A DNA stretch of 64,000 nucleotides from Candidatus Cloacimonadales bacterium (GCA_963677495.2 CAXXOU010000002.1:164070-228069); one strand, 5' to 3'. Positions 6,460 through 23,058 are shown, counted from the stretch's first letter. Notes: generated by a model not told the origin, from the sequence alone. Program-made: numbers and translations.

Positions 6460-7533
6460 ATGAGAAAGTTTAACTTTGATAACCTGAGTCGAGAAGAGAT
6501 TATTGCTCTTCTAGAGACTACAGACAGGAAGGAAGTGGATGCTTTATACAAAGCTGCTTATGCTCAGAAACTAAAAGAGATAGGACCTAATGTCTACCTC
6601 AGAGGAATTGCTGAGATAAGTAACATCTGCACTAAGGATTGCTATTATTGCGGTATTCGCAAGAGTAACAGCAATGTTAATCGTTATAACATGACAAAAG
6701 ATGACATCATCAATGCTGCTAAGTTCTGCCTTGAACATGATTATGCTTCAATTGCTATCCAAGCTGGTGAACGAGATGACCCGGAATGGGTAGACTTCAT
6801 TGAGGAAGTTGTTACTGAGATTCATGCTCTAAGTGACTTTAAACTCGGTATCACACTATCGCTTGGTGAACAAACAAAGGAAACGTTTGCACGCTGGCGT
6901 AAAGCCGGTGCGACAAGGTATCTGCTGAGAATAGAGTCATCTGATCCTGAACTATATAAGAAGTTACATCCTGCAGACCATTCTTTTGAAAAACGACTTG
7001 AAAGCCTTAGGTTCCTTAGAGAAACTGACTATCAGGTAGGAACAGGTGTGATGATTGGTTTACCATACCAGACAGCTGCTAACTTAGCAGATGATATCCT
7101 CTTCATGAAAGAGTGGGATATCGATATGATTGGTATGGGACCTTATATACCACATCATGAAACTCCTCTTGCAGAAGCTGATTATACATTTGATGAAGAG
7201 CGTCAACTTGATCTTGGTCATCGCATGATTGCACTTGTAAGGCTTGTTCTTAAAGATGTGAATATAGCAGCAACTACTGCGCTTCAGGCTCTAGGTGGAG
7301 ATGGACGCATTAAAGGTTTACAGGTCGGTGCCAACATCATTATGCCAATCGTGATTGATGATACAAACTATCGAAAGAACTACTTCCTTTATGATAACAA
7401 ACCCGGTGTTGATGAGAACTGCGAGTCATTCCGCATGAAACTGGAAGACAATATCAAAGCTATTGGTGAGAATATTGTCTATGGAGAACGAGGTGATTCA
7501 AAGCACTACAAAAAGCGAAAAGGTTTAATCTAA
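6460..7533 (+). CDS. hydE: [FeFe]-hydrogenase H-cluster radical SAM maturase HydE
   Basis: 357 aa with the radical-SAM motif CTKDCYYCGIR. It has a BioB-like fold signature and lies adjacent to hydG. Confidence 0.85.
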   Translation: MRKFNFDNLSREEIIALLETTDRKEVDALYKAAYAQKLKEIGPNVYLRGIAEISNICTKDCYYCGIRKSNSNVNRYNMTKDDIINAAKFCLEHDYASIAIQAGERDDPEWVDFIEEVVTEIHALSDFKLGITLSLGEQTKETFARWRKAGATRYLLRIESSDPELYKKLHPADHSFEKRLESLRFLRETDYQVGTGVMIGLPYQTAANLADDILFMKEWDIDMIGMGPYIPHHETPLAEADYTFDEERQLDLGHRMIALVRLVLKDVNIAATTALQALGGDGRIKGLQVGANIIMPIVIDDTNYRKNYFLYDNKPGVDENCESFRMKLEDNIKAIGENIVYGERGDSKHYKKRKGLI

Positions 7534-7566
7534 TAAATTATAACTGCGAACGATAGGGGAGCATGG

Positions 7567-7606
7567 AGCAATTCATGCTCCCTTGTCAATTTTTCGGACT
7601 TGCACC
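7567..7606 (+). terminator. Probable terminator hairpin after hydE
   Basis: A 9-bp stem (GGGAGCATG at 7567-7575, CATGCTCCC at 7584-7592) is followed by TTGTCAATTTTT. Confidence 0.5.
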
Positions 7607-7679
7607 AGTCTTCGCTTAAAAGCTACGCCCTGACAAGCCGCAGTGAAACGTGGGGTGAGGATGAAATCCTTAGCTCGCG

Positions 7680-7751
7680 TCCATAGGAGCTTGCTATTTC
7701 TACGCCAAGCGAAGAATGGCAAGCTATTCTTAAGTCAGTGGGCAGAAGTCC
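7680..7751 (+). repeat. Family-3 module, second copy
   Basis: Aligns with 3993-4064 (TTAGCTCGCGTCCATAGGAGCTTGCTATTTCTACGCCAAGCGAAGAATGGCAAGCTA...). Confidence 0.7.
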
Positions 7752-8225
7752 TTACTGTTATTTGAGACCCCATGTAAAGAATTAAGGAAGTCCGCTTTTA
7801 CTTCACTAGAGATACGCTTCCGGCAAACTCCCTACATTCTTTAGATTACTCATTTTTTCTCAAATTTTACATTAAATTGGCCTTCCGATTCCCTGATGGA
7901 ATCTGGACTAAGAAAGGTGTTTCAAAGGTATCCCACAGGTGACCCTCTCGTGACCCTCTCGTGGAAGGGCTCGATTTATTCACATCATGTGGATAACTTG
8001 AAAATCTAAGCTACACTTTCAAAAGTCACGGGACTGGAAGGGGAGAGGTAGGCGAAATTTGGAAAAGTGGATAAAAAGCGGATATTGAGAAGGGTTATTT
8101 AGTGAAGATGCATTAATCAAAGAAATAGGTTTACAACTTTCAAAACATAGTTATGATTTGAACAATTATAGTGTAATAGGAGAGAAACCGTTAACCAACC
8201 CTAATTTGTAAATAAGGAGAAGAGT

Positions 8226-10358
8226 ATGAAGCAGATGATTCTGCTCTTTTCTGTGCTGAGCATAGCAATTATCATAGCTATACCTATTGAGGAGAGAGAT
8301 TTCAGTGTTTTCTTATATGGAAACGACGATACTTTTGCCTATGATAATTGGTATTCTCATCTTGCAGAAAATGTAGCACGTCCGGGTTATAATGATTATG
8401 CCCCCTTTGATAGACAACTGACAGGTTTTGGGGGATACGTACAACCTTCAGCAACCGACTCACTAAATTGGTATAATGCAGTTTATGCGTTTGCCAATGA
8501 TAATCTCCCAAATGCTCAATCATGGTTGGATAACAGCTCTTTGCCATTTGAGGTGCTTTATATGGATGATACTGATACAGGTCGTAGATACAACGTTCTC
8601 AGAGAGCTACCGGATACATTGTATTATGATGATAATAACACTCTTGATTTGCTTGATGATGAGATCGGTGCTTTTACTCACGGTTGGGGATTAATTGTAA
8701 AGAATGAGGAGAGCACAAATCCAAGTATTATCTCTGTTGTTCACCCATGTGATGATTTCATTGCAGTACCGGTTGCTTATGATATCTTTAAAAAGCTTGA
8801 TGCGAGGTATCTAATCATAAATGGTGTAGGCAGAGAAGTAGCATATTGGGGTTCAGCTTCAAGCTTCAATAATAGTCGTGCCCTCAGTGATCCGAGCAGG
8901 AATGCCAGCCATCCTAATCATACTGCTTTCAAAGCTGCTTGTGATGAGATTAGAGAGACTTTCAACAGAGAAGAGTTTGTGTTGCAGTTGCATAGTTATG
9001 ACCCTCAAACTGCAATAGATTGGGATGTTATCGCTTGCTCAGGTATTGGAAGTTTACACTATAGACCTATTTATGATTGGGATGAAACAAACCAAGGAAT
9101 TGTCAACAATCTACCCTTTAGAATTCCTATACTTGATGGTTTTGAGTATGAAGAGGATTTGAGTATTGTGGAATATTTTGCCATAGCTAACTACGCTAAT
9201 TATCCTTATGACATTTACTATAGTACGACTGATTCTTTGCGTATACAAACAATTAATACTTATGGTGGTTATGGTCCTAACAAACAACGATTGTATATGC
9301 AAAGTAGTCCCTTATACAACTATCAAAACTGGTTGCATATAGAGATGAGAGAGTCTCCATCATACTGTGATGATTGGAGATTGTATTATAACTTCGATGA
9401 AGAGACACAGATTTATAATCGTGATGAGCTGTTCAACAAAGTGATTGAGCACAATAGTCATTGGGTGGATGCACTGGTCAGCTTCTTTCCTGAATTTATT
9501 GAAAAGTCGGATGGTGGGATACCCCCGAGTCCTGTTGCTCCGTTAGTCTATAATCCCGGTATTGTTGATACAGGTGTGTTTCAATGGTCTGAGGTTGAGG
9601 ACGCTAATTTCTTGAAATATGAATTGCTTGCTTCTCCACAAAACTCTTTCTCAGAGAGCATTAAATTGATCACAGCGAATACAAGTATAAATGATTCTTG
9701 GGTTGAACTACAAAACACTGAGTATTTACCAAATTACTGGTATCAGGTCACAGCAACTGATTTTGATGGGTCCTTTTCTCAATCGAATAAGGTTTACATT
9801 GATTCCAATTACAGCAGTAGTGGCTACCCGTTTCTGCCATCAAATAGCTTCGAAATTGAATTTGAACGTTCTGATTTCTCAAATGAGCTTGTCGAGGTTC
9901 TCCTCCAAAACAAAAGTAATAAAGCTTTTAATGTAATAAGCATTACCGGGCTTGAATATCCATTTAGCATTGCTACAGCCAATCTTAGTAGGCCTTTATC
10001 TGTCGAAGCCTATGACTTCATAACTATAGATGTAGAAATAGATTTGCACACTCCCGGAGCTTATGAATCAGAGTTGATTTTAACTACTGATTGTGATGAT
10101 ATCCCCAGACTCAGATGTAGTTTCAATGCCTGGATAATAGATTATTCTGCACCTTTACAATCTGAAATCTACGTCGATGAAGAGAATCAGATTGTACTTC
10201 GATGGGAGGATAAACCGGAGTCAGAATATCTTATTTATTCGAGTGATTTCCCTAATTACGGGTATAACTTGTATACAAGAACTGATAAGAACTACCATAT
10301 TCTAGCTAAAAGGGACAGAGCATTTTATCGGGTTTATCGGAATAGAAAGGGACAATAA
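8226..10358 (+). CDS. Secreted hypothetical protein (710 aa)
   Basis: Long ORF with a strong SD (AAGGAGAAGAG) and an N-terminal signal-like segment MKQMILLFSVLSIAIIIAIP. I recognise no family. Confidence 0.6.
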   Translation: MKQMILLFSVLSIAIIIAIPIEERDFSVFLYGNDDTFAYDNWYSHLAENVARPGYNDYAPFDRQLTGFGGYVQPSATDSLNWYNAVYAFANDNLPNAQSWLDNSSLPFEVLYMDDTDTGRRYNVLRELPDTLYYDDNNTLDLLDDEIGAFTHGWGLIVKNEESTNPSIISVVHPCDDFIAVPVAYDIFKKLDARYLIINGVGREVAYWGSASSFNNSRALSDPSRNASHPNHTAFKAACDEIRETFNREEFVLQLHSYDPQTAIDWDVIACSGIGSLHYRPIYDWDETNQGIVNNLPFRIPILDGFEYEEDLSIVEYFAIANYANYPYDIYYSTTDSLRIQTINTYGGYGPNKQRLYMQSSPLYNYQNWLHIEMRESPSYCDDWRLYYNFDEETQIYNRDELFNKVIEHNSHWVDALVSFFPEFIEKSDGGIPPSPVAPLVYNPGIVDTGVFQWSEVEDANFLKYELLASPQNSFSESIKLITANTSINDSWVELQNTEYLPNYWYQVTATDFDGSFSQSNKVYIDSNYSSSGYPFLPSNSFEIEFERSDFSNELVEVLLQNKSNKAFNVISITGLEYPFSIATANLSRPLSVEAYDFITIDVEIDLHTPGAYESELILTTDCDDIPRLRCSFNAWIIDYSAPLQSEIYVDEENQIVLRWEDKPESEYLIYSSDFPNYGYNLYTRTDKNYHILAKRDRAFYRVYRNRKGQ

Positions 10359-16742: not shown

Positions 16743-18057
16743 TTTTAGCCTCATCAACTATCTTTCTATTCTTGTATCAACCACGCTTGAATCCAGGAAT
16801 TAGTAACACCCTGTATTCCTATCTACCCGGTGATAACCCCGAAGAAAACAGTTTCTATGAACTCTATGGTTTCACTGCTCCCCAAGGCATAGATCCTTAT
16901 GATGCCGGATTGCAGAAAGTGGTTAATGCTAATAAAACTTTACTTGATTATAATGCAACCAATGTTCCTATTTCTGATCCTAGATTGAAGAAGCTGGTTA
17001 GTACATTTAAAGATACTCTCCGCTCGGATATACACTATGTTAAAGATAGAGCAGAGGGACAGAGTAATATAGATTTAATCAAATCGAAGCGCAAAGAGCT
17101 TAGACCAATTATTGAAAAGTATCAATACATGAAAGAGCGCTACTCGAGAATCAGGGAGTACAAATATTTCAAACAAAGATTATTCCACATACAGCCTCCC
17201 CATACTGGCGTGGTTCTCTGTTAGTTGCCTATCAAAGGTTGGTTTCTGCTGAGTTCGTGCTTGAATATCTCTATGGAGATCGTAATAAAGCTCTTGAACT
17301 TATGCAACTAAGCTATGATGTGAATCGAAATCTTTTCAAAGTTTGTGATGACATGTTGATAAAGTATATGACCGCTTATAATCTTGGGAATGTAGAAGAG
17401 ATAATAAGTGAGCTGATGAGCTATGAAAAGCCATGTGACCAGCGTTTGTTAAACTTTGTTAGCAATGTGCAAGGCTTCGATAGGGAGGATGTTAATCTTC
17501 GTAAACCTCGAGAGACAGGATTTAACTATACCCTCATTTCAACCTTGGCTGATAGAATGAATAACAGACAGATTTTAGAGGATTATGTTGTCACTCCTAA
17601 AGAGATTACTCAATCCAGTAGCTTCATGTTTAAATCAAACGATTTTGCCAACCAGTTCTATGCTTTCAATGAATATATAATGGATTACTCAGAGAAATCC
17701 TTCCCTGAGATTTATGCTGAGAAAGATAATCGATTCAGTTATAATCCAACCTCAGTATTGAATGTATTTAATACACTGGGAGTAGCTCATACAATCACTG
17801 TAATTCATGTTGAGAAGATGGCAAAAGACTATCTGTTTAGGTATATTCATAACTATTTGGGCACCAAGCTGCTAAAAGCAAAAGCTGATATTATCAGAGA
17901 GAATGTTCCTAAAGATAAGATTGAAGATTTCCTCCAAAACGATGTGGTTAAGTATGGAGTAGAGTACAAGGACGAAACTTTCAAGTATGATTCTGTAAAC
18001 CACAAGATCTACTTTGACCAACTCAATAAAGATGAGAGTTACGGGTTTAAACTGTAG
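16706..18057 (+). pseudogene. Hypothetical protein in two frames (16706-17224 and ~17190-18057), possibly continuous with the RDD gene
   Basis: The second frame stays open upstream of 17239 (PHTASPYWRGSLLVAYQRLVSAEF...), which implies a single indel near 17175-17195. I recognise no family. Confidence 0.45.
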
Positions 18058-18081
18058 GTATACATCACAAATGTATAGATG

Positions 18082-18112
18082 AAGCCTGGTGCCTTGCATC
18101 AGGCTTTTTATT
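18082..18112 (+). terminator. Rho-independent terminator
   Basis: A stem (AAGCCTG at 18082-18088, CAGGCTT at 18100-18106) is followed by TTTTATT. Confidence 0.7.
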
Positions 18113-19733
18113 GTAGTGCGAGTGTCCCCACTTGCACATAGCTCGATAGAGCTATCACTGGGAAGCCAATCGAGCTCAGAAACTAGTATTGACTTGTATT
18201 TCCCAAAATAAGAACTACTTTTCAACGTATGATTTCTAAGTATCAGTCAGAGGAAGCTGCCGACTGTGTCGGCACAGCAACTCAGGAGAGTTGCAGTACA
18301 TTCGTAGTGTAAGTGTCCCCACTTGCACATAGCTCGATAGAGCTATAATCGGGAAACTTATCGTGTACTGGAAGTAGTATTGACATGTATAATCACGAAA
18401 CTTAATTCTACGTTCTAAACGTATGATTTCTAAGTTCCAGTCAGAGGAAACTGCCGACTGTGTCGGCACAGCAACTCAGGAGAGTTGCAGTACATTTGTA
18501 GTGCGAGTGTCCCCACTTGCACATAGCTCGATAGAGCTATAATCGGGAAACTTATCGTGTACTGGAAGTAGTATTGACATGTATAATCACGAAACATAAT
18601 TCTACGTTCTAAACGTATGATTTCTAAGTTCCAGTCAGAGGAAGCTGCCGACTGTGTCGGCACAGCAACTCAGGAGAGTTGCAGTACATTCGTAGTGTAA
18701 GTGTCCCCACTTGCACATAGCTCGATAGAGCTATAATCGGGAAACTTATCGTGTACTGGAAGTAGTATTGACATGTATAATCACGTAACATAATTCTACG
18801 TTCTAAACGTATGATTTCTAAGTTCCAGTCAGAGGAAGCTGCCGACTGTGTCGGCACAGCAACTCAGGAGAGTTGCAGTACATTTGTAGTGCGAGTGTCC
18901 CCACTTGCACATAGCTCGATAGAGCTATAATCGGGAAACTTATCGTGTACTGGAAGTAGTATTGACATGTATAATCACGAAACATAATTCTACGTTCTAA
19001 ACGTATGATTTCTAAGTTCCAGTCAGAGGAAGCTGCCGACTGTGTCGGCACAGCAACTCAGGAGAGTTGCAGTACATTTGTAGTGCGAGTGTCCCCACTT
19101 GCACATAGCTCGATAGAGCTATAATCGGGAAACTTATCGTGTACTGGAAGTAGTATTGACATGTATAATCACGAAACATAATTCTACGTTCTAAACGTAT
19201 GATTTCTAAGTTCCAGTCAGAGGAAGCTGCCGACTGTGTCGGCACAGCAACTCAGGAGAGTTGCAGTACATTTGTAGTGCGAGTGTCCCCACTTGCACAT
19301 AGCTCGATAGAGCTATAATCGGGAAACTTATCGTGTACTGGAAGTAGTATTGACATGTATAATCACGAAACTTAATTCTACGTTCTAAACGTATGATTTC
19401 TAAGTTCCAGTCAGAGGAAGCTGCCGACTGTGTCGGCACAGCAACTCAGGAGAGTTGCAGTACATTTGTAGTGCGAGTGTCCCCACTTGCACATAGCTCG
19501 ATAGAGCTATAATAGGGAAACTTATCGTGTACTGGAAGTAGTATTGACATGTATAATCACGAAACATAATTCTACGTTCTAAACGTATGATTTCTAAGTT
19601 CCAGTCAGAGGAAACTGCCGACTGTGTCGGCACAGCAACTCAGGAGAGTTGCAGTACATTCGTAGTGCAAGTGTCACCACTTGCACATAGCTCGAAGAGC
19701 TATAATCGGGAGACTTATTGTGCTAAGTAGTAG
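18112..19733 (+). repeat. 194-bp tandem repeat array: a divergent partial unit, 7 full units and a truncated last unit (candidate array of promoter-equipped structured ncRNA genes)
   Basis: TTGACATGTATAATCACG recurs at 18380, 18574, 18768, 18962, 19156, 19350 and 19544, an exact 194-bp step. The units differ at only a few positions. See the findings for the hairpin analysis. Confidence 0.95.
18768..18796 (+). promoter_or_regulatory. Representative intra-unit promoter-like element, TTGACA-17 nt-TAATTC (repeats every 194 bp)
   Basis: It has the same architecture as putative promoters upstream of real genes in this window: TTGACA-17-TAATTA at 36191, TTGACA-17-TTATTA at 42126 and TTGACA-17-ATTATA at 50247. 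Confidence 0.45.
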
Positions 19734-19793
19734 TCACCAGTACGACCAACAGGAGTTTGGAAAAATGCGGAATTGACTTTCTGAAGTGCTACT
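19734..19793 (-). repeat. Partial Family-2 / inverted-repeat-arm element abutting the end of the tandem array
   Basis: GTCACCAGTACGACCAACAGGAGTTTGGAAAAATGCGGAATTGAC... aligns with 3887-3945 in the same orientation. Confidence 0.65.
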
Positions 19794-20065
19794 ATATCCT
19801 GATGGAATAACCATATAATATCCATGGTGCTTTAGCCCATGGATAAGAATTATCACCAAAACCCTACCCCAACAGGACTGAATTTTCATTCCCAATTCTA
19901 TCCCATTAATCCCTCATTCCTCTATCATAATTCCCGACAGAAAACTGTCTCATTCCAATGAGTCTCTTGAGGCTCACTAGGGCAAAAGGATAAGAGACTG
20001 ACAATAAACCGGGCAGAAATCGGTTGCTCTTGAACCCGAATTATGATGGAGCAATGATAGAGAAA

Positions 20066-20139
20066 TATAGCTCAAAGCCTATAGCCTATAGCCTATAGCT
20101 CAAAGCTTATAGTCCTTATTTCAGCTATAGGCTATAGGT
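20066..20139. repeat. 7-bp periodic TATAGCN repeats followed by an inverted copy (AGCTATAGGCTATAGG)
   Basis: The sequence reads TATAGCT CAAAGCC TATAGCC TATAGCC TATAGCT CAAAGCT TATAGTC ... AGCTATAGGCTATAGG. This forms a 16-bp inverted repeat with a loop of about 22 nt. Confidence 0.8.
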
Positions 20140-20345
20140 TGTTAGCTTTTAACTACAAATTCACTCCCCGTTAGAAACACGTTACAAGAAATGGGGATTG
20201 GATAGGATCTGGATGAAGAATTGATATACTCCCCAATTGTAGTAAGATAGTGCATTATTTATGACTACATATGATGTATTTGCTCCGTTATTGCTCTGCT
20301 ACAATATTGAACAAAAACGAATCCATTTCCAATCGCTCTCCTAGC

Positions 20346-20373
20346 AGACACCTATTGAATTCAATAGGTGTCT
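20346..20373. repeat. Perfect 28-bp palindrome AGACACCTATTGAA|TTCAATAGGTGTCT
   Basis: Read directly from the sequence. It is centred on GAATTC and lies in an ORF-free region. Confidence 0.9.
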
Positions 20374-20463
20374 AATAGGAAACTGCAAAGGAAATGATAA
20401 CTGAGGGTTGAGAATTGTGACAGAGCAGTGCGGAAGGGATTCTAGTATTAGGAACACCGTTTC

Positions 20464-20487
20464 CCACCACTTGAAAGTGGTGGTTTT
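20464..20487 (+). terminator. Plus-strand intrinsic terminator inside the ORF-free region
   Basis: The hairpin CCACCACT-tgaa-AGTGGTGG is followed by TTTT. The minus-strand version has no T-run. Confidence 0.6.
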
Positions 20488-20708
20488 GGGGAGCATATAT
20501 TCAACCCGTTTCGGGATCGAAGGTTCTTCTTAGGGATTCATGACAATGCATTTCATGAATGGCTACTCACATATAATTCCGTTCAACCATCAAAATATTA
20601 CGGCACGACAAGTGGGATTATTATTAAGGTTAATTAAGTGAACAGGGTTGTTCGCTATACATTTCCGGGTTTAACAAATAAAAGCCTATTATCTGAACTT
20701 ATCCGAGT

Positions 20709-20998
20709 AATCTACGGCTATTTAGCATGTTACAGTCAGTCAGTGGCAGTACATTCGTAGTGCGAGTGTCCTCACTTGCACATAGCTCGATAGAGCTATC
20801 ACTGGGAAGCCAATCGTGCCCAGAAGCTAGTATTGACATGTATTGCCAAAATTAGTTTTACTTTCCAGCGTATGATTTCTAAGTTTCAGTCAGTGGATAG
20901 AAGCTGACGACTGTGTCGTCACAGCATCAGTCTTCGCTGTAAGCTTCGCCCGACAAGACTAAAGAGAGTTGCAGTACAAAAAGCGAACCAGCATTGAC
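20709..20998 (+). repeat. Diverged copy (~1.5 units) of the 194-bp repeat, directly upstream of the PHP/EndoQ-like operon
   Basis: The 20757-20885 segment aligns with the divergent leading unit at 18113-18227, including ATCACTGGGAAGCCAATCG and TTGACA at 20833. The next half-unit (20870-20998) carries a compensated hairpin 1 and a 32-bp insertion homologous to 7616-7649. Confidence 0.85.
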
Positions 20999-21055
20999 AC
21001 AGTCAATGCACTCCATAATAGGATAATCATTGACTAATATAGACAGTTCATCTGA

Positions 21056-21844
21056 ATGCATAAAAATCACGATAGGATTGTCATGAAAACGGATTTACAT
21101 ATACATACTAAGTTTAGTTCAGATGCGAGGATAGAACCGGAAGAGTTAGCTGAAAAGGCACTTGGAAACGGCTATGAGTTGATTGGGATTACAGATCATT
21201 TCGATATCTTAGCTGAGAGTGTCAGTACACATAAGAACATTGAGTTTACAGATTATGTTGAATACTTCCACGAGTTGAAGGCAAAGTATTCAGAGCTTAA
21301 GATTGCTGTAGGGGCAGAAGTAGGGGAATTGCATTGGTTCAAAAAAGAGTTAGCTGATGTGTTTGGTGACCTGAACCCCGATTACTTATTAGCATCTATC
21401 CATTTCTTATCAAATAAAAAGGAGGTTTCGACTTCTTTTGCAGGTTACTTGTCGAGAGATGAAATCAAAGATTACTATATGATGAATCTGAACATGGTGG
21501 AGCAGGCTGACTTCCATATCCTGGGGCACTTGGGTATATTCAACAGATACAAAAAACATGATGAATCGCATGTTCGAGATATCAAGAAAGAGATTTTCAA
21601 TGTGATGATTGATAGAGGGATTGCTCTGGAAGTTAACAGCTCAGGATATAATAAACCTATAAATGAGATTCTGCCTGTTGTTAGAGATCTTGATATGTAT
21701 ATGGAACTTGGTGGAAGACTTTTAAGCATCGGTTCTGATGCCCACACACTTGAGATGTTTGATAAGTATTATGACAGATGTATGCAAGTACTAGGCGATA
21801 TGGGAGCTGAGTACAAACTGTTCATACCGGAGATGAAGTTATGA
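21056..21844 (+). CDS. PHP-domain phosphoesterase (HisJ/histidinol-phosphatase-like family)
   Basis: PHP metal-ligand motifs are present: DLHIHTKFSSDA, GITDHFD, SIHF, ILGHL, LEVNSSG and IGSDAH. The real start may be the ATG at 21083 (MKTDLH). Confidence 0.75.
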   Translation: MHKNHDRIVMKTDLHIHTKFSSDARIEPEELAEKALGNGYELIGITDHFDILAESVSTHKNIEFTDYVEYFHELKAKYSELKIAVGAEVGELHWFKKELADVFGDLNPDYLLASIHFLSNKKEVSTSFAGYLSRDEIKDYYMMNLNMVEQADFHILGHLGIFNRYKKHDESHVRDIKKEIFNVMIDRGIALEVNSSGYNKPINEILPVVRDLDMYMELGGRLLSIGSDAHTLEMFDKYYDRCMQVLGDMGAEYKLFIPEMKL

Positions 21845-23058
21845 GATTAGCAGTAGATTTACATTCACATTCAGGTTATGCTGGTGGTGTGGGAAATATA
21901 AAATTGGAAGATGTAATCCAGACGATGAAAAGAAAGGGTATCGATGTTTTCGGGGCCGGTGATGTATTGTTCCCAAAGCGTACTGAAGAACTACGAGAAG
22001 TGCTTACTGAAAGCAGTGAGGGTCTTTTCTCTCTAAATAGTAGTAAAGAACAATTTGCTTTGCAGACTGAGATTATTCTATCGGTAAGATTGGAAGGCTA
22101 TAAACGTAAGATAATGGCACATCATGTCGTGCTTTTTCCTGATTTTGAGTCAATCAAAAAGATGCAAAAGCTAATGACTAAATGGGGACAGAAGAACACT
22201 ATTGGTCGCCCTTTTATTGTGAGTGATGATTTAGCACAGCAGACAGAGAGACTGTTTGAGATAAAGAATATCCACCCATTGGTTGAGGTGATCCCTGCCC
22301 ATGTTATGACTCCGGAAGGTATACTCGGTAGTAAGAATATGCTTGAATCTATCAATGAGTTTTACGGTGAGTTTACTGACGAAATACAGGTTGTCGAGAC
22401 AGGATTGAGTGCTGATCCATACATGCTTGAGCAGATAGAGGAACTGGCAGATATGACAATGATTTCCAATAGTGATTGTCACAGTGCAGCTTTGAATCGA
22501 ATCGGACGTGAGTTCACTATGCTTGATGTTCAAGATAGAAGCTATAAAGGCATTGTTGAAGCTCTTAGAACAAATAAAGTCGAGTTTACAGCTGAGTTTA
22601 ACCCGGCAGAGGGAAGATACTACAATACCGGCCATAGAGCTGATAGACAGGGACATGAAGAAGCATATATCTCTGATAACCCGAAAGAGACTGTATGCCC
22701 TATATGCAATAAACCTTTCCTGCCGGGAGTTGAAAGACGAGTGAAGCAGTTGAGTAGTGGGTATAAAGCGAAACATACTCGTGAATTCCATCATCTCCTA
22801 CCATTAATTGAGGCAATTGCACTGGCTATTGGGGTTAAAAGTATAACATCAAAGAGGGTTGTAGAAAGGTTTAACACAGTATTGGATGAGTTTGACACTG
22901 AAATAGCGTTTTGGTTAGCATCAAAAGAGGAGATACTGAAAAAGCTTGATGGAAAGCTGGAGGGAGAGATCCTCATGCGCCTATTAAAGGTCCATGATGG
23001 CAAGTTCTCGTTCCAACCACCGGGATTTGATGGCAACTATGGGGTGCTATCGCTTTAG
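21841..23058 (+). CDS. Endonuclease Q-like protein (TIGR00375-type PHP-fold nuclease)
   Basis: Matches the archaeal EndoQ pattern as I remember it: VDLHSHS, GAGD, HHVVLFP, IPAHVMTPE, ETGLSADPYM, ISNSDCHSAALNRIGREF and GRYYNTGH. A CPICNKPF zinc-knuckle half-site is also present. An ATGA overlap links it to the PHP gene. Confidence 0.65.
   Translation: MRLAVDLHSHSGYAGGVGNIKLEDVIQTMKRKGIDVFGAGDVLFPKRTEELREVLTESSEGLFSLNSSKEQFALQTEIILSVRLEGYKRKIMAHHVVLFPDFESIKKMQKLMTKWGQKNTIGRPFIVSDDLAQQTERLFEIKNIHPLVEVIPAHVMTPEGILGSKNMLESINEFYGEFTDEIQVVETGLSADPYMLEQIEELADMTMISNSDCHSAALNRIGREFTMLDVQDRSYKGIVEALRTNKVEFTAEFNPAEGRYYNTGHRADRQGHEEAYISDNPKETVCPICNKPFLPGVERRVKQLSSGYKAKHTREFHHLLPLIEAIALAIGVKSITSKRVVERFNTVLDEFDTEIAFWLASKEEILKKLDGKLEGEILMRLLKVHDGKFSFQPPGFDGNYGVLSL

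Follow-up and report, generated by a model that had tools for sequence, protein, structure and literature searches.

What is a diverged copy of a tandemly repeated unit doing immediately ahead of an operon for a PHP-family protein and an EndoQ-like protein? This question is raised by the 64,000-nucleotide (nt) stretch of DNA analysed here (the window, C2:164070-228069), which belongs to a Candidatus Cloacimonadales genome of 3.4 Mb in four contigs, designated G000. A preliminary description of the window had proposed that the repeat may be the native 5′ region of the operon. The results given below indicate that window 20713-20978 is occupied by 1.2 copies of a composite hairpin repeat that is non-coding and specific to the genus. 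The copy ahead of the operon, referred to as the PHP-adjacent copy, is quite probably a bystander: it is best explained as the form, devoid of an open reading frame (ORF), of a repetitive extragenic palindromic (REP)-type element that carries a gene for a putative REP-associated tyrosine transposase (RAYT), and as one later hit by a mini-element of 31-33 nt.

The layout of the locus was obtained by direct reading of 20700-21100, and all parts of the repeat are given for the + strand. The full unit copy at 20757-20978, delimited by nhmmer, blast and edge comparison, is 222 bp long with its insert and runs from a GTAG head to a GCAGTACA tail. It falls in the 194-bp unit family with a blast E-value of 3.7e-36 and an nhmmer match at C2:184827-185047 that covers positions 1-188 of the unit's hidden Markov model (hmm). 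The copy begins with GTAG and hairpin 1 (GTGCGAGTG-TCCT-CACTTGCAC, 20757-20781), which form the REP-type head, followed by hairpin 2 (ATAGCTC-GATA-GAGCTAT, 20782-20799). The 'promoter-like' hexamer TTGACA (20833-20838) stands at the inner edge of the left end, and the most variable spacer of the family comes next. Further on are CGTATGATTTCTAAG (20869-20883), the H1 hairpin with the variant stem TGACGAC/GTCGTCA (20903-20925), a nested module of 31 nt (TCAGTCTTCGCTGTAAGCTTCGCCCGACAAG, 20927-20957) placed between GCA and ACT of the 5′ arm of the H2 hairpin, and the remainder of H2 (ACTAAAGAGAGTTGC) with the element tail GCAGTACA (20958-20978). H2 of this copy is further weakened by two point changes. 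The ends of a unit are GTAG with hairpin 1 on the left and H1-H2-GCAGTACA on the right, and the junction reads GCAGTACANNNGTAG. The remnant of a preceding unit, whose H1-H2 core is deleted, was found at 20713-20756. There, the tail of the spacer and CAGTCAGTGG are joined straight to CAGTACATTC with the boundary ...CAGTCAGTCAGTGG|CAGTACATTC, and the remnant is similar to the unit segment CTACGTTCTAAACGTATGATTTCTAAGTTCCAGTCAGAGG...CAGTACATTTG.

The sequence features named in the preliminary description were borne out by this layout, while several coordinates had to be shifted. CGTATGATTTCTAAG and H1 with its stem TGACGAC/GTCGTCA are kept, as had been stated. The part before the full unit, at 20713-20756, does lack H1 and H2. 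The inserted string had been read correctly; it begins at 20928, in a block whose coordinates had been set 20 bp too high. The 5′ half of H2 is not replaced by this block, as had been supposed, but the 5′ arm is split by it as GCA|ACT. The unit, said to end about 60 bp before the ATG at 21056, ends at 20978, i.e. 77 bp before 21056 and 104 bp before the ATG at 21083.

The distribution of the unit in the genome is the first line of evidence on its nature. A blast search with one unit against its own genome gave 94 matches on all four contigs, and iterated nhmmer searches resolved 96 pieces at 46 loci, 45 of which are unlinked to the PHP/EndoQ-like operon. Across the 46 loci, the edges are sharp and shared, with a left edge of G|TAGTGC... 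and a right edge of ...GCAGTACA, and the flanks are unrelated; no target sequence 5′ of the units was conserved at these loci beyond the G of GTAG. Hairpin 1, which follows the G|TAGTGC start, has a 9-bp stem including a G-T pair, and a regular expression for GTAG with hairpin 1 found 62 copies genome-wide. The pieces are modular, where full units occur along with heads only (hmm 1-40/60, corresponding to GTAG with hairpins 1 and 2) and tails only (hmm ~128-188, corresponding to H1 with H2). The H1-H2 part also forms 64-bp tandem arrays of its own, for example at C4:1323710-1323967 and C4:1451371-1451498. The remnant at 20713-20756 lacks exactly this part, and the H1-H2 segment may be gained and lost as a block.

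Gene context was taken from crude ORF-based calls. All 46 loci are intergenic, with no piece inside a called ORF; the flanking genes are convergent at 13 of them, divergent at 10 and co-directional at 23. The downstream gene has the same orientation as the unit at 18 of the 46 loci and the opposite one at 28, which gives no orientation bias towards downstream genes. The family was found in all four genomes of the genus (G000, G001, G002 and G003) and in none of 37 genomes that represent other genera within the family and order. In G001, full units are present only at C1:852691-853989, which is the RAYT locus described below and lies more than 1.2 Mb from PHP/EndoQ. Elsewhere in G001 there are single hairpins (head or H2), which are 88-93% identical to those of G000; for whole units the identity is ~71%.

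The second line of evidence is a RAYT-like gene within a unit. The genome has 14 Y1_Tnp-like matches, among which C4:1452082-1452666 (194 aa) stands amid the arrays of the largest unit cluster. The protein matches NF047646, 'REP-associated tyrosine transposase', with an E-value of 2.9e-21 and 75.9 bits, where the curated cut-off is 80, and its Pfam Y1_Tnp score of 20.0 is below the cut-off of 23. The best match in the PDB is 4ER8, TnpA-REP of E. coli (E 0.0016), where ...NQIEYLKNNPVK is aligned with ...HHVDYIYINPVK (EYL against DYI); we take the latter segment to bear the catalytic tyrosine. The HUH motif HVHLI is present. Directly upstream of the ORF stands the left part of the unit (hmm 1-109), which ends at 1452053 and shows homology by eye to ...AGTATGGACATG. 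Directly past the stop codon, the unit resumes at 1452670 (hmm 104) and continues to hmm 188, with homology by eye from ...TTCTAAGTTCCGGTCAGTGG. The ORF is framed by the left and right parts of the unit, and therefore the ordinary 190-bp unit corresponds to the element minus the ORF and a short upstream region.

The same arrangement was found in a second species. The ortholog in G001 (C1:853222-853791) is 71% identical, has units before and after it, and has the same chromosomal flanks on both sides as in G000; there is one ortholog in each of the two genomes, with the same flanking sequences. In six more genomes of the order (G002 and representatives of five other genera), each homologue has tandem hairpin repeats of its own on its flanks, and several of these repeats bear a GTAG tag, such as TTGTAGCGCAAGCATCCTGCTTGC in L046. 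Four more RAYT-like genes are present in G000 (C2:265272-265808, C2:350349-350978, C3:76613-77188 and C4:1048444-1049124), each in a different repeat family. Their host families are a type-C-like hairpin, the type B repeat, 'Family-2' (GCAGTCACC...) and 11-bp-phased CACTG elements, where types B and C are those described with the nested module below. This suggests several parallel REPtron-like systems in one genome.

Near a unit fragment, an IS200-type TnpA gene (C1:910648-911109) was considered as the cognate enzyme and rejected because the hairpins at its own ends are different. The RAYT locus of G000 is split by ~2.3 kb (C4:1449022-1451356) relative to the syntenic locus of G001. This insert is bounded by ...CATTTTAAATTGGTACAGTTTGGCATTTAAAAATGGTACAG-type ends, which adjoin units at several other loci, and it is probably another mobile element that targets units.

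The proposed explanation can be stated as follows. The repeat, built from a GTAG-tagged REP-type head, three further hairpins and the GCAGTACA tail, would be the ORF-less form of a RAYT-like Y1 (HUH) element. The RAYT-like enzyme would recognise strand-specific hairpins in single-stranded DNA and would cut and rejoin the DNA beside them, by which single hairpins, whole units and head-to-tail arrays would be scattered over intergenic DNA. The copy ahead of the PHP/EndoQ-like operon would have landed there, or arisen by local duplication, upstream of the operon's own conserved promoter region. Afterwards, the second hairpin mini-element of 31-33 nt, which appears to enter the hairpins of several repeat families with exact boundaries and without target duplication, would have entered the PHP-adjacent copy.

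Several points weigh against this explanation, among which the two sub-threshold scores of the RAYT-like protein have to be counted. The units have no replication-strand bias (22 vs 24). They do not avoid divergent intergenic regions (10 of 46 loci); published REP families tend to do so (PMC3733652). An inverted REP pair, as in bacterial interspersed mosaic elements (BIMEs) or REP doublets forming hairpins (REPINs), was not found: the left head matched the inverted right tail at 16/23 positions with a score of 9, and a shuffle control gave 7.1 ± 1.5 with a maximum of 16. The reading of the unit as a terminal inverted repeat or REPIN element was rejected, the end match being no better than in the shuffles. 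No Y1 gene is present within 2.5 kb of any copy of the core motif of the nested module, and the growth of the array could equally have resulted from unequal crossing-over.

The PHP-adjacent copy was also compared with the nearby array. Tandem Repeats Finder delimits an array of period 194 at 18111-19722 with 8.3 copies and 96% matches. The array consists of a leading unit with an empty H2 (18112-18304, +) and of seven canonical 194-bp units with one partial unit (18305-19722, +), the latter assigned to a separate, young lineage from Tandem Repeats Finder and the tree. The segment 20757-20885 has an identity of 90.7% to the leading unit and of 85.0%, with more gaps, to one canonical unit, which agrees with the earlier statement that it is nearer to the former. 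When all 47 full-length units found in the genome were aligned and placed in a tree, the leading unit came out as the sister of the PHP-adjacent copy, each being the nearest relative of the other at 89.2% identity; the array is thus bracketed by two copies of what had been called an older variant, as described before. The seven canonical units form a tight clade of their own and are 97-100% identical among themselves. Judging from these sequences, the canonical units are young and are not descendants of the bracketing variant. The gene upstream of the array ends in a terminator hairpin (18081-18107), and the array begins directly behind its T-run (GGCTTTTTATTG|TAGTGC at 18081-18111); the solitary unit at C3:268546 is likewise preceded by a terminator-like hairpin and a T-run.

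The operon itself comprises a PHP (HisJ-family-like) gene and an overlapping TIGR00375/EndoQ-like gene at 21056-23058 (+), as assigned from Pfam PHP (9.6e-20) and from matches to TIGR01856 and TIGR00375. According to the preliminary description, the unit with its promoter, leader and H1 would be the native 5′ regulatory region of this operon, and the eight-copy array would be a recent amplification of it. The PHP-adjacent copy indeed points the same way as the operon, whose start is 77-104 bp past the end of the copy, a unit remnant occurs at the equivalent position in G001, and the leading unit of the array is the closest relative of the PHP-adjacent copy. However, the proposal is highly improbable in view of the distribution described above, where 45 of the 46 loci have no linkage to the operon and 28 have a downstream gene that runs against the unit. 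It is also at odds with the separate lineage of the canonical array units and with the absence, in a consensus scan, of a properly spaced −10 element from the + strand of every unit.

The comparison of related genomes leads to the same outcome. The PHP/EndoQ-like pair is present in all four genomes of the genus, yet a profile search found no unit upstream of the pair, either in G003, where 900 bp were inspected and 8 kb searched, or in the 713 bp available for G002. Outside the genus, the fetched loci have the TIGR00375 gene without the PHP partner and without the unit. In G001, the array of full units is unlinked to PHP/EndoQ, at more than 1.2 Mb, which is an outcome that the preliminary description had itself named as contrary to its proposal, and ~270 bp upstream of PHP there is only a 3′ unit remnant of ~60 nt (GACTTCGTCGTCACAACAACTCATGAGAGTTGCAGTACATTG), which consists of half of H1, an empty H2 and the tail. 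This remnant suggests that a unit has been near the PHP site since before the split of G000 and G001, although it may instead derive from an independent insertion. Neither part of the proposal, the unit as a native 5′ region or the array as an amplified leader, was upheld by these results.

The sequence between the repeat and the genes provides a further argument against a native leader, as the conserved block with its palindrome and TTGACT sits downstream of the repeat. Over 113 bp, this promoter-proximal block (20989-21100, +) is 81% identical to G001. Within it are the palindrome GCATTGACACAGTCAATGC (20991-21009), which reads GCATTGAC-ACA-GTCAATGC and is followed by ACTCC, and TTGACT at 21030-21035. 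In each of the four genomes of the genus, a TTGACT precedes the gene start by ~26-47 bp, and the consensus scan placed a promoter-like site at 21040-21067. The ATG at 21083 is a likelier start of the PHP gene than that at 21056, as it is preceded by AGGA and relatives align from residue ~3-11 of the 21056 ORF; GGATAGGATTRTCATG is also conserved in G001. The native control region is likely to lie downstream of the repeat. The palindrome is conserved upstream of the G001 PHP gene in two copies, recurs at C4:1498874 beside another unit and is found inverted at C4:63076; it may be an operator or a further small repeat.

Farther upstream, within the non-coding, ORF-free island, the blocks 19920-20057 and 20499-20583 have 72-75% identity to sequences upstream of the G001 PHP gene. 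Their order is roughly the same in G001, where the second block is repeated. A megablast search of 17000-23000 against phage records gave no match.

The constraint on the hairpins raises another possibility, that of a functional RNA. The four hairpins of the unit are all different and all lie on one strand. The H1 stem occurs as GCCGAC/GTCGGC (n = 23), GACGAC/GTCGTC (n = 12) and GCCAAC/GTTGGC (n = 7), with mismatch intermediates (n = 9). These compensatory variants of H1, taken with hairpins that are conserved across species and spacers that are not, show that the structure is under constraint. Such a constraint would fit the recognition of hairpins in single-stranded DNA and, equally, an RNA role. 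In the latter case, the units would be, or would have become, functional RNA, transcribed from a weak promoter of their own or by read-through into a multi-hairpin RNA, with a role like that of the nucleoid-associated RNAs from REP clusters or of the REP sequences that stabilise mRNA in E. coli, and the PHP-adjacent copy would affect the expression of the operon.

The RNA role is compatible with a mobile origin of the units, and it draws on several of the observations above, namely the compensatory changes with the far better conservation of hairpins than of spacers across species, the location of all four hairpins on a single strand, and the start of the array directly behind the terminator at 18081-18107. 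In addition, a passage of PMC4550694 reports that almost 80% of E. coli REPs are transcribed and deals with the repeat cluster REP325 and a noncoding RNA that arranges chromosome organisation. We nevertheless regard the RNA role as unlikely. No Rfam family matched the unit: searches of the whole window at the gathering threshold, and of 18000-21100 and 7400-8300 at an E-value threshold, gave nothing but tRNA-Phe and spurious hairpins (miRNA-type). A conserved −10 element and a terminator were not found in the units: the consensus scan gave no + strand promoter-like site within any unit and no + strand terminator after the hairpins. Variability within the unit is highest in the −10 region, which the G001 units lack; the spacer after TTGACA is not conserved in G001, and the C4 arrays have degenerate forms of TTGAC (ATGAC/TGGAC). 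It is also common for pieces to be truncated and for modules to be separable, and a Y1 transposase would equally read strand-specific hairpins in single-stranded DNA.

Returning to the bystander explanation, its last step concerns the module nested in H2. A profile made from the first module copies gave 32 nhmmer matches in G000 at E-values up to 10, ~24 of which had E < 0.001. The strict pattern GTCTTCGY-N4-7-RCTWCGCCCNGA gave 16 matches in G000, nine in G002 and two in G003, and none in G001 or in 37 other genomes; a reversed control pattern gave none. The second copy within the window had been noticed before, and it does exist, but at 7606-7639 (+) rather than 7616-7649 and with an identity of 83% rather than ~85%. 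It sits in a type B repeat (GGACTTGCAC|...|CGCAGTGAA).

Filled and empty sites were counted by searching each host context with a variable gap. H2 of the unit is empty in 44 cases (gap 7) and filled in three (gap 38-39), where the insert adds 31 to 32 nt. The type B repeat (ACTTGCA C CGCAAC) is empty at 16 sites and filled at six (+33 nt), and the type A repeat (GGCACCCCT CTAC GAGAGGGG) is empty at 18 sites and filled at three, with one tandem double in addition (about +30 to +32 nt). The type C hairpin (GCAYCTAC-ACA-GTTGRTGC) is empty at 31 sites and filled at two found by the pattern (+32 nt), to which two additional filled sites with slightly different stems can be added. At every filled site, TCAGTC...GACARG has been inserted without duplication of the flanks, and either the loop or the 5′ arm of a hairpin is interrupted. 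The earlier suggestion that the block behaves as a tiny insertion element thus gains support from filled and empty sites with exact boundaries in four repeat families. In the unit at C4:1499185, the module is reversed and lies in the H2 loop. Two module copies stand in tandem within one type A repeat at C4:1475101-1475180. The central stem of the module, 3-4 bp long, covaries (GCT/AGC, GCC/GGC, GTT/AAC, GTTT/AAAC), and the copies in G002 and G003 have identical ends, yet other contexts. H2 is empty in the sister leading unit and in the G001 remnant, and therefore the insertion into the PHP-adjacent copy postdates the local duplication.

The module has room for one short hairpin only, and 31 nt is too short for two IS200-type ends. 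Our best guess is that it is a REP-like single hairpin, which would be handled in trans by a RAYT-like enzyme. A more specific version is tentative and remains the less probable one: the module would be a free-standing cassette for insertion as single-stranded DNA, with one tiny hairpin and the fixed ends TCAGTC...GACARG, spliced by a Y1/HUH enzyme into the exposed loops or 5′ arms of other REP-type hairpins. No target would be duplicated in this process, and one repeat would come to be nested in another. If this is true, the cassette would be among the smallest known, and REP-class enzymes would insert foreign segments into hairpins rather than serving only their own multiplication. The genus, with at least five RAYT-like genes, each with its own repeat family, would then be a natural system for studying the target choice of the enzyme.

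Alternatively, the 31-33-nt block might not be mobile at all, but an alternative variant of the hairpin loop spread by gene conversion or by the duplication of filled copies. This would account for the lack of an adjacent transposase gene at any copy (2.5 kb around the core-motif copies), for a block too short to have separate left and right ends, and for some filled copies of one family being near-identical paralogues. It is nonetheless improbable, even more so than the RNA role of the units. The same block with the same boundaries is found in four unrelated contexts, once reversed in an H2 loop, which conversion between non-homologous hosts would not yield. The tandem double copy at C4:1475101 also speaks for mobility, as do the copies of G002 and G003, which have the same ends in still other contexts.

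With the PHP-adjacent copy explained as a bystander, a false lead is removed, namely that the PHP/EndoQ-like operon has an exotic amplified leader, and much of the ~3-kb ORF-free island is explained as a repeat dump. A REP/RAYT-type system is documented in Cloacimonadales, with a one-stranded, four-hairpin composite unit that is visibly the ORF-less form of a RAYT-carrying copy, and this gives a clear view of the relation between a REP cluster and its transposase. The clean pairs of filled and empty module sites are rare direct evidence of insertion at such a small size, and they suggest hairpin loops as targets.

Among known systems, the REP/RAYT systems (E. coli yafM, Pseudomonas, Stenotrophomonas; PMC2817692, PMC3333891, PMC3733652) offer the closest points of contact. 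As in these, a GTAG stands 5′ of an imperfect hairpin in the unit, scores of intergenic copies occur as singletons, composites and tandem clusters, and a Y1 HUH gene, putatively of the REP-associated class, is embedded in its own repeats at a conserved chromosomal site. RAYT genes lie within 'REPtrons' (PMC3733652, PMC2817692), and in large REP clusters the units are tandemly reiterated with flanking DNA, with head-to-tail dimers also known (PMC3733652). TnpA-REP of E. coli requires GTAG and a mismatch in the stem; it cuts single-stranded DNA beside the REP and can join such sites, which has been proposed as a source of the variability and amplification of BIMEs (PMC3333891). REPs typically have more than 100 copies (PMC2817692), and the 96 pieces at 46 loci found here are at the low end of the REP range. 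In contrast to the known systems, the unit is a 190-bp composite of four distinct one-strand hairpins and not alternating inverted copies of one REP, and the RAYT ORF is within the unit, between distinct left and right parts. The protein is also just under the NCBIfam cut-off, and the bacterium that hosts the system belongs to the Cloacimonadales.

REPINs (Bertels and Rainey 2011; PMC3116915, PMC3337134) are likewise non-autonomous units that exceed a single REP in size, and their mobilisation is ascribed to a RAYT that is present in one copy and inherited vertically. They differ in being two inverted REPs that form one long hairpin, whereas the ends of the present unit share only GTA(G/C)TGC and similar loops, a likeness not above chance.

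In the IS200/IS605 family of insertion sequences, as modelled by IS608 and by palindrome-associated transposable elements (PATEs), the left and right ends have differing subterminal hairpins without terminal inverted repeats, a Y1 transposase gene lies between them, ORF-less copies occur, and the target is not duplicated. The unit resembles these elements in its distinct left and right hairpin ends, in its lack of terminal inverted repeats, in the Y1 gene between them and in its ORF-less copies, which outnumber the full copy, and the module is likewise inserted without target duplication. Unlike in that family, the enzyme is RAYT-like and apparently fixed at one syntenic locus, and no conserved target tetranucleotide was found 5′ of the units. 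The true IS200 TnpA genes of the genome, such as C1:910648-911109, differ from the unit in their ends. The module differs from the family as well, having no separate left and right subterminal hairpins and no Y1 gene within 2.5 kb of its core-motif copies.

In its choice of target, the module is like IS1397, ISKpn1 and ISPpu9 (PMC1525189, PMC12288879), which land specifically in palindromic repeat units; these are full insertion sequences with transposase genes, whereas the module is 31-33 nt long, non-coding and without target duplication. Taken together, the element is best placed among the REP/RAYT-type repeat systems, as one whose architecture is unusual and in which a mini-element is nested.

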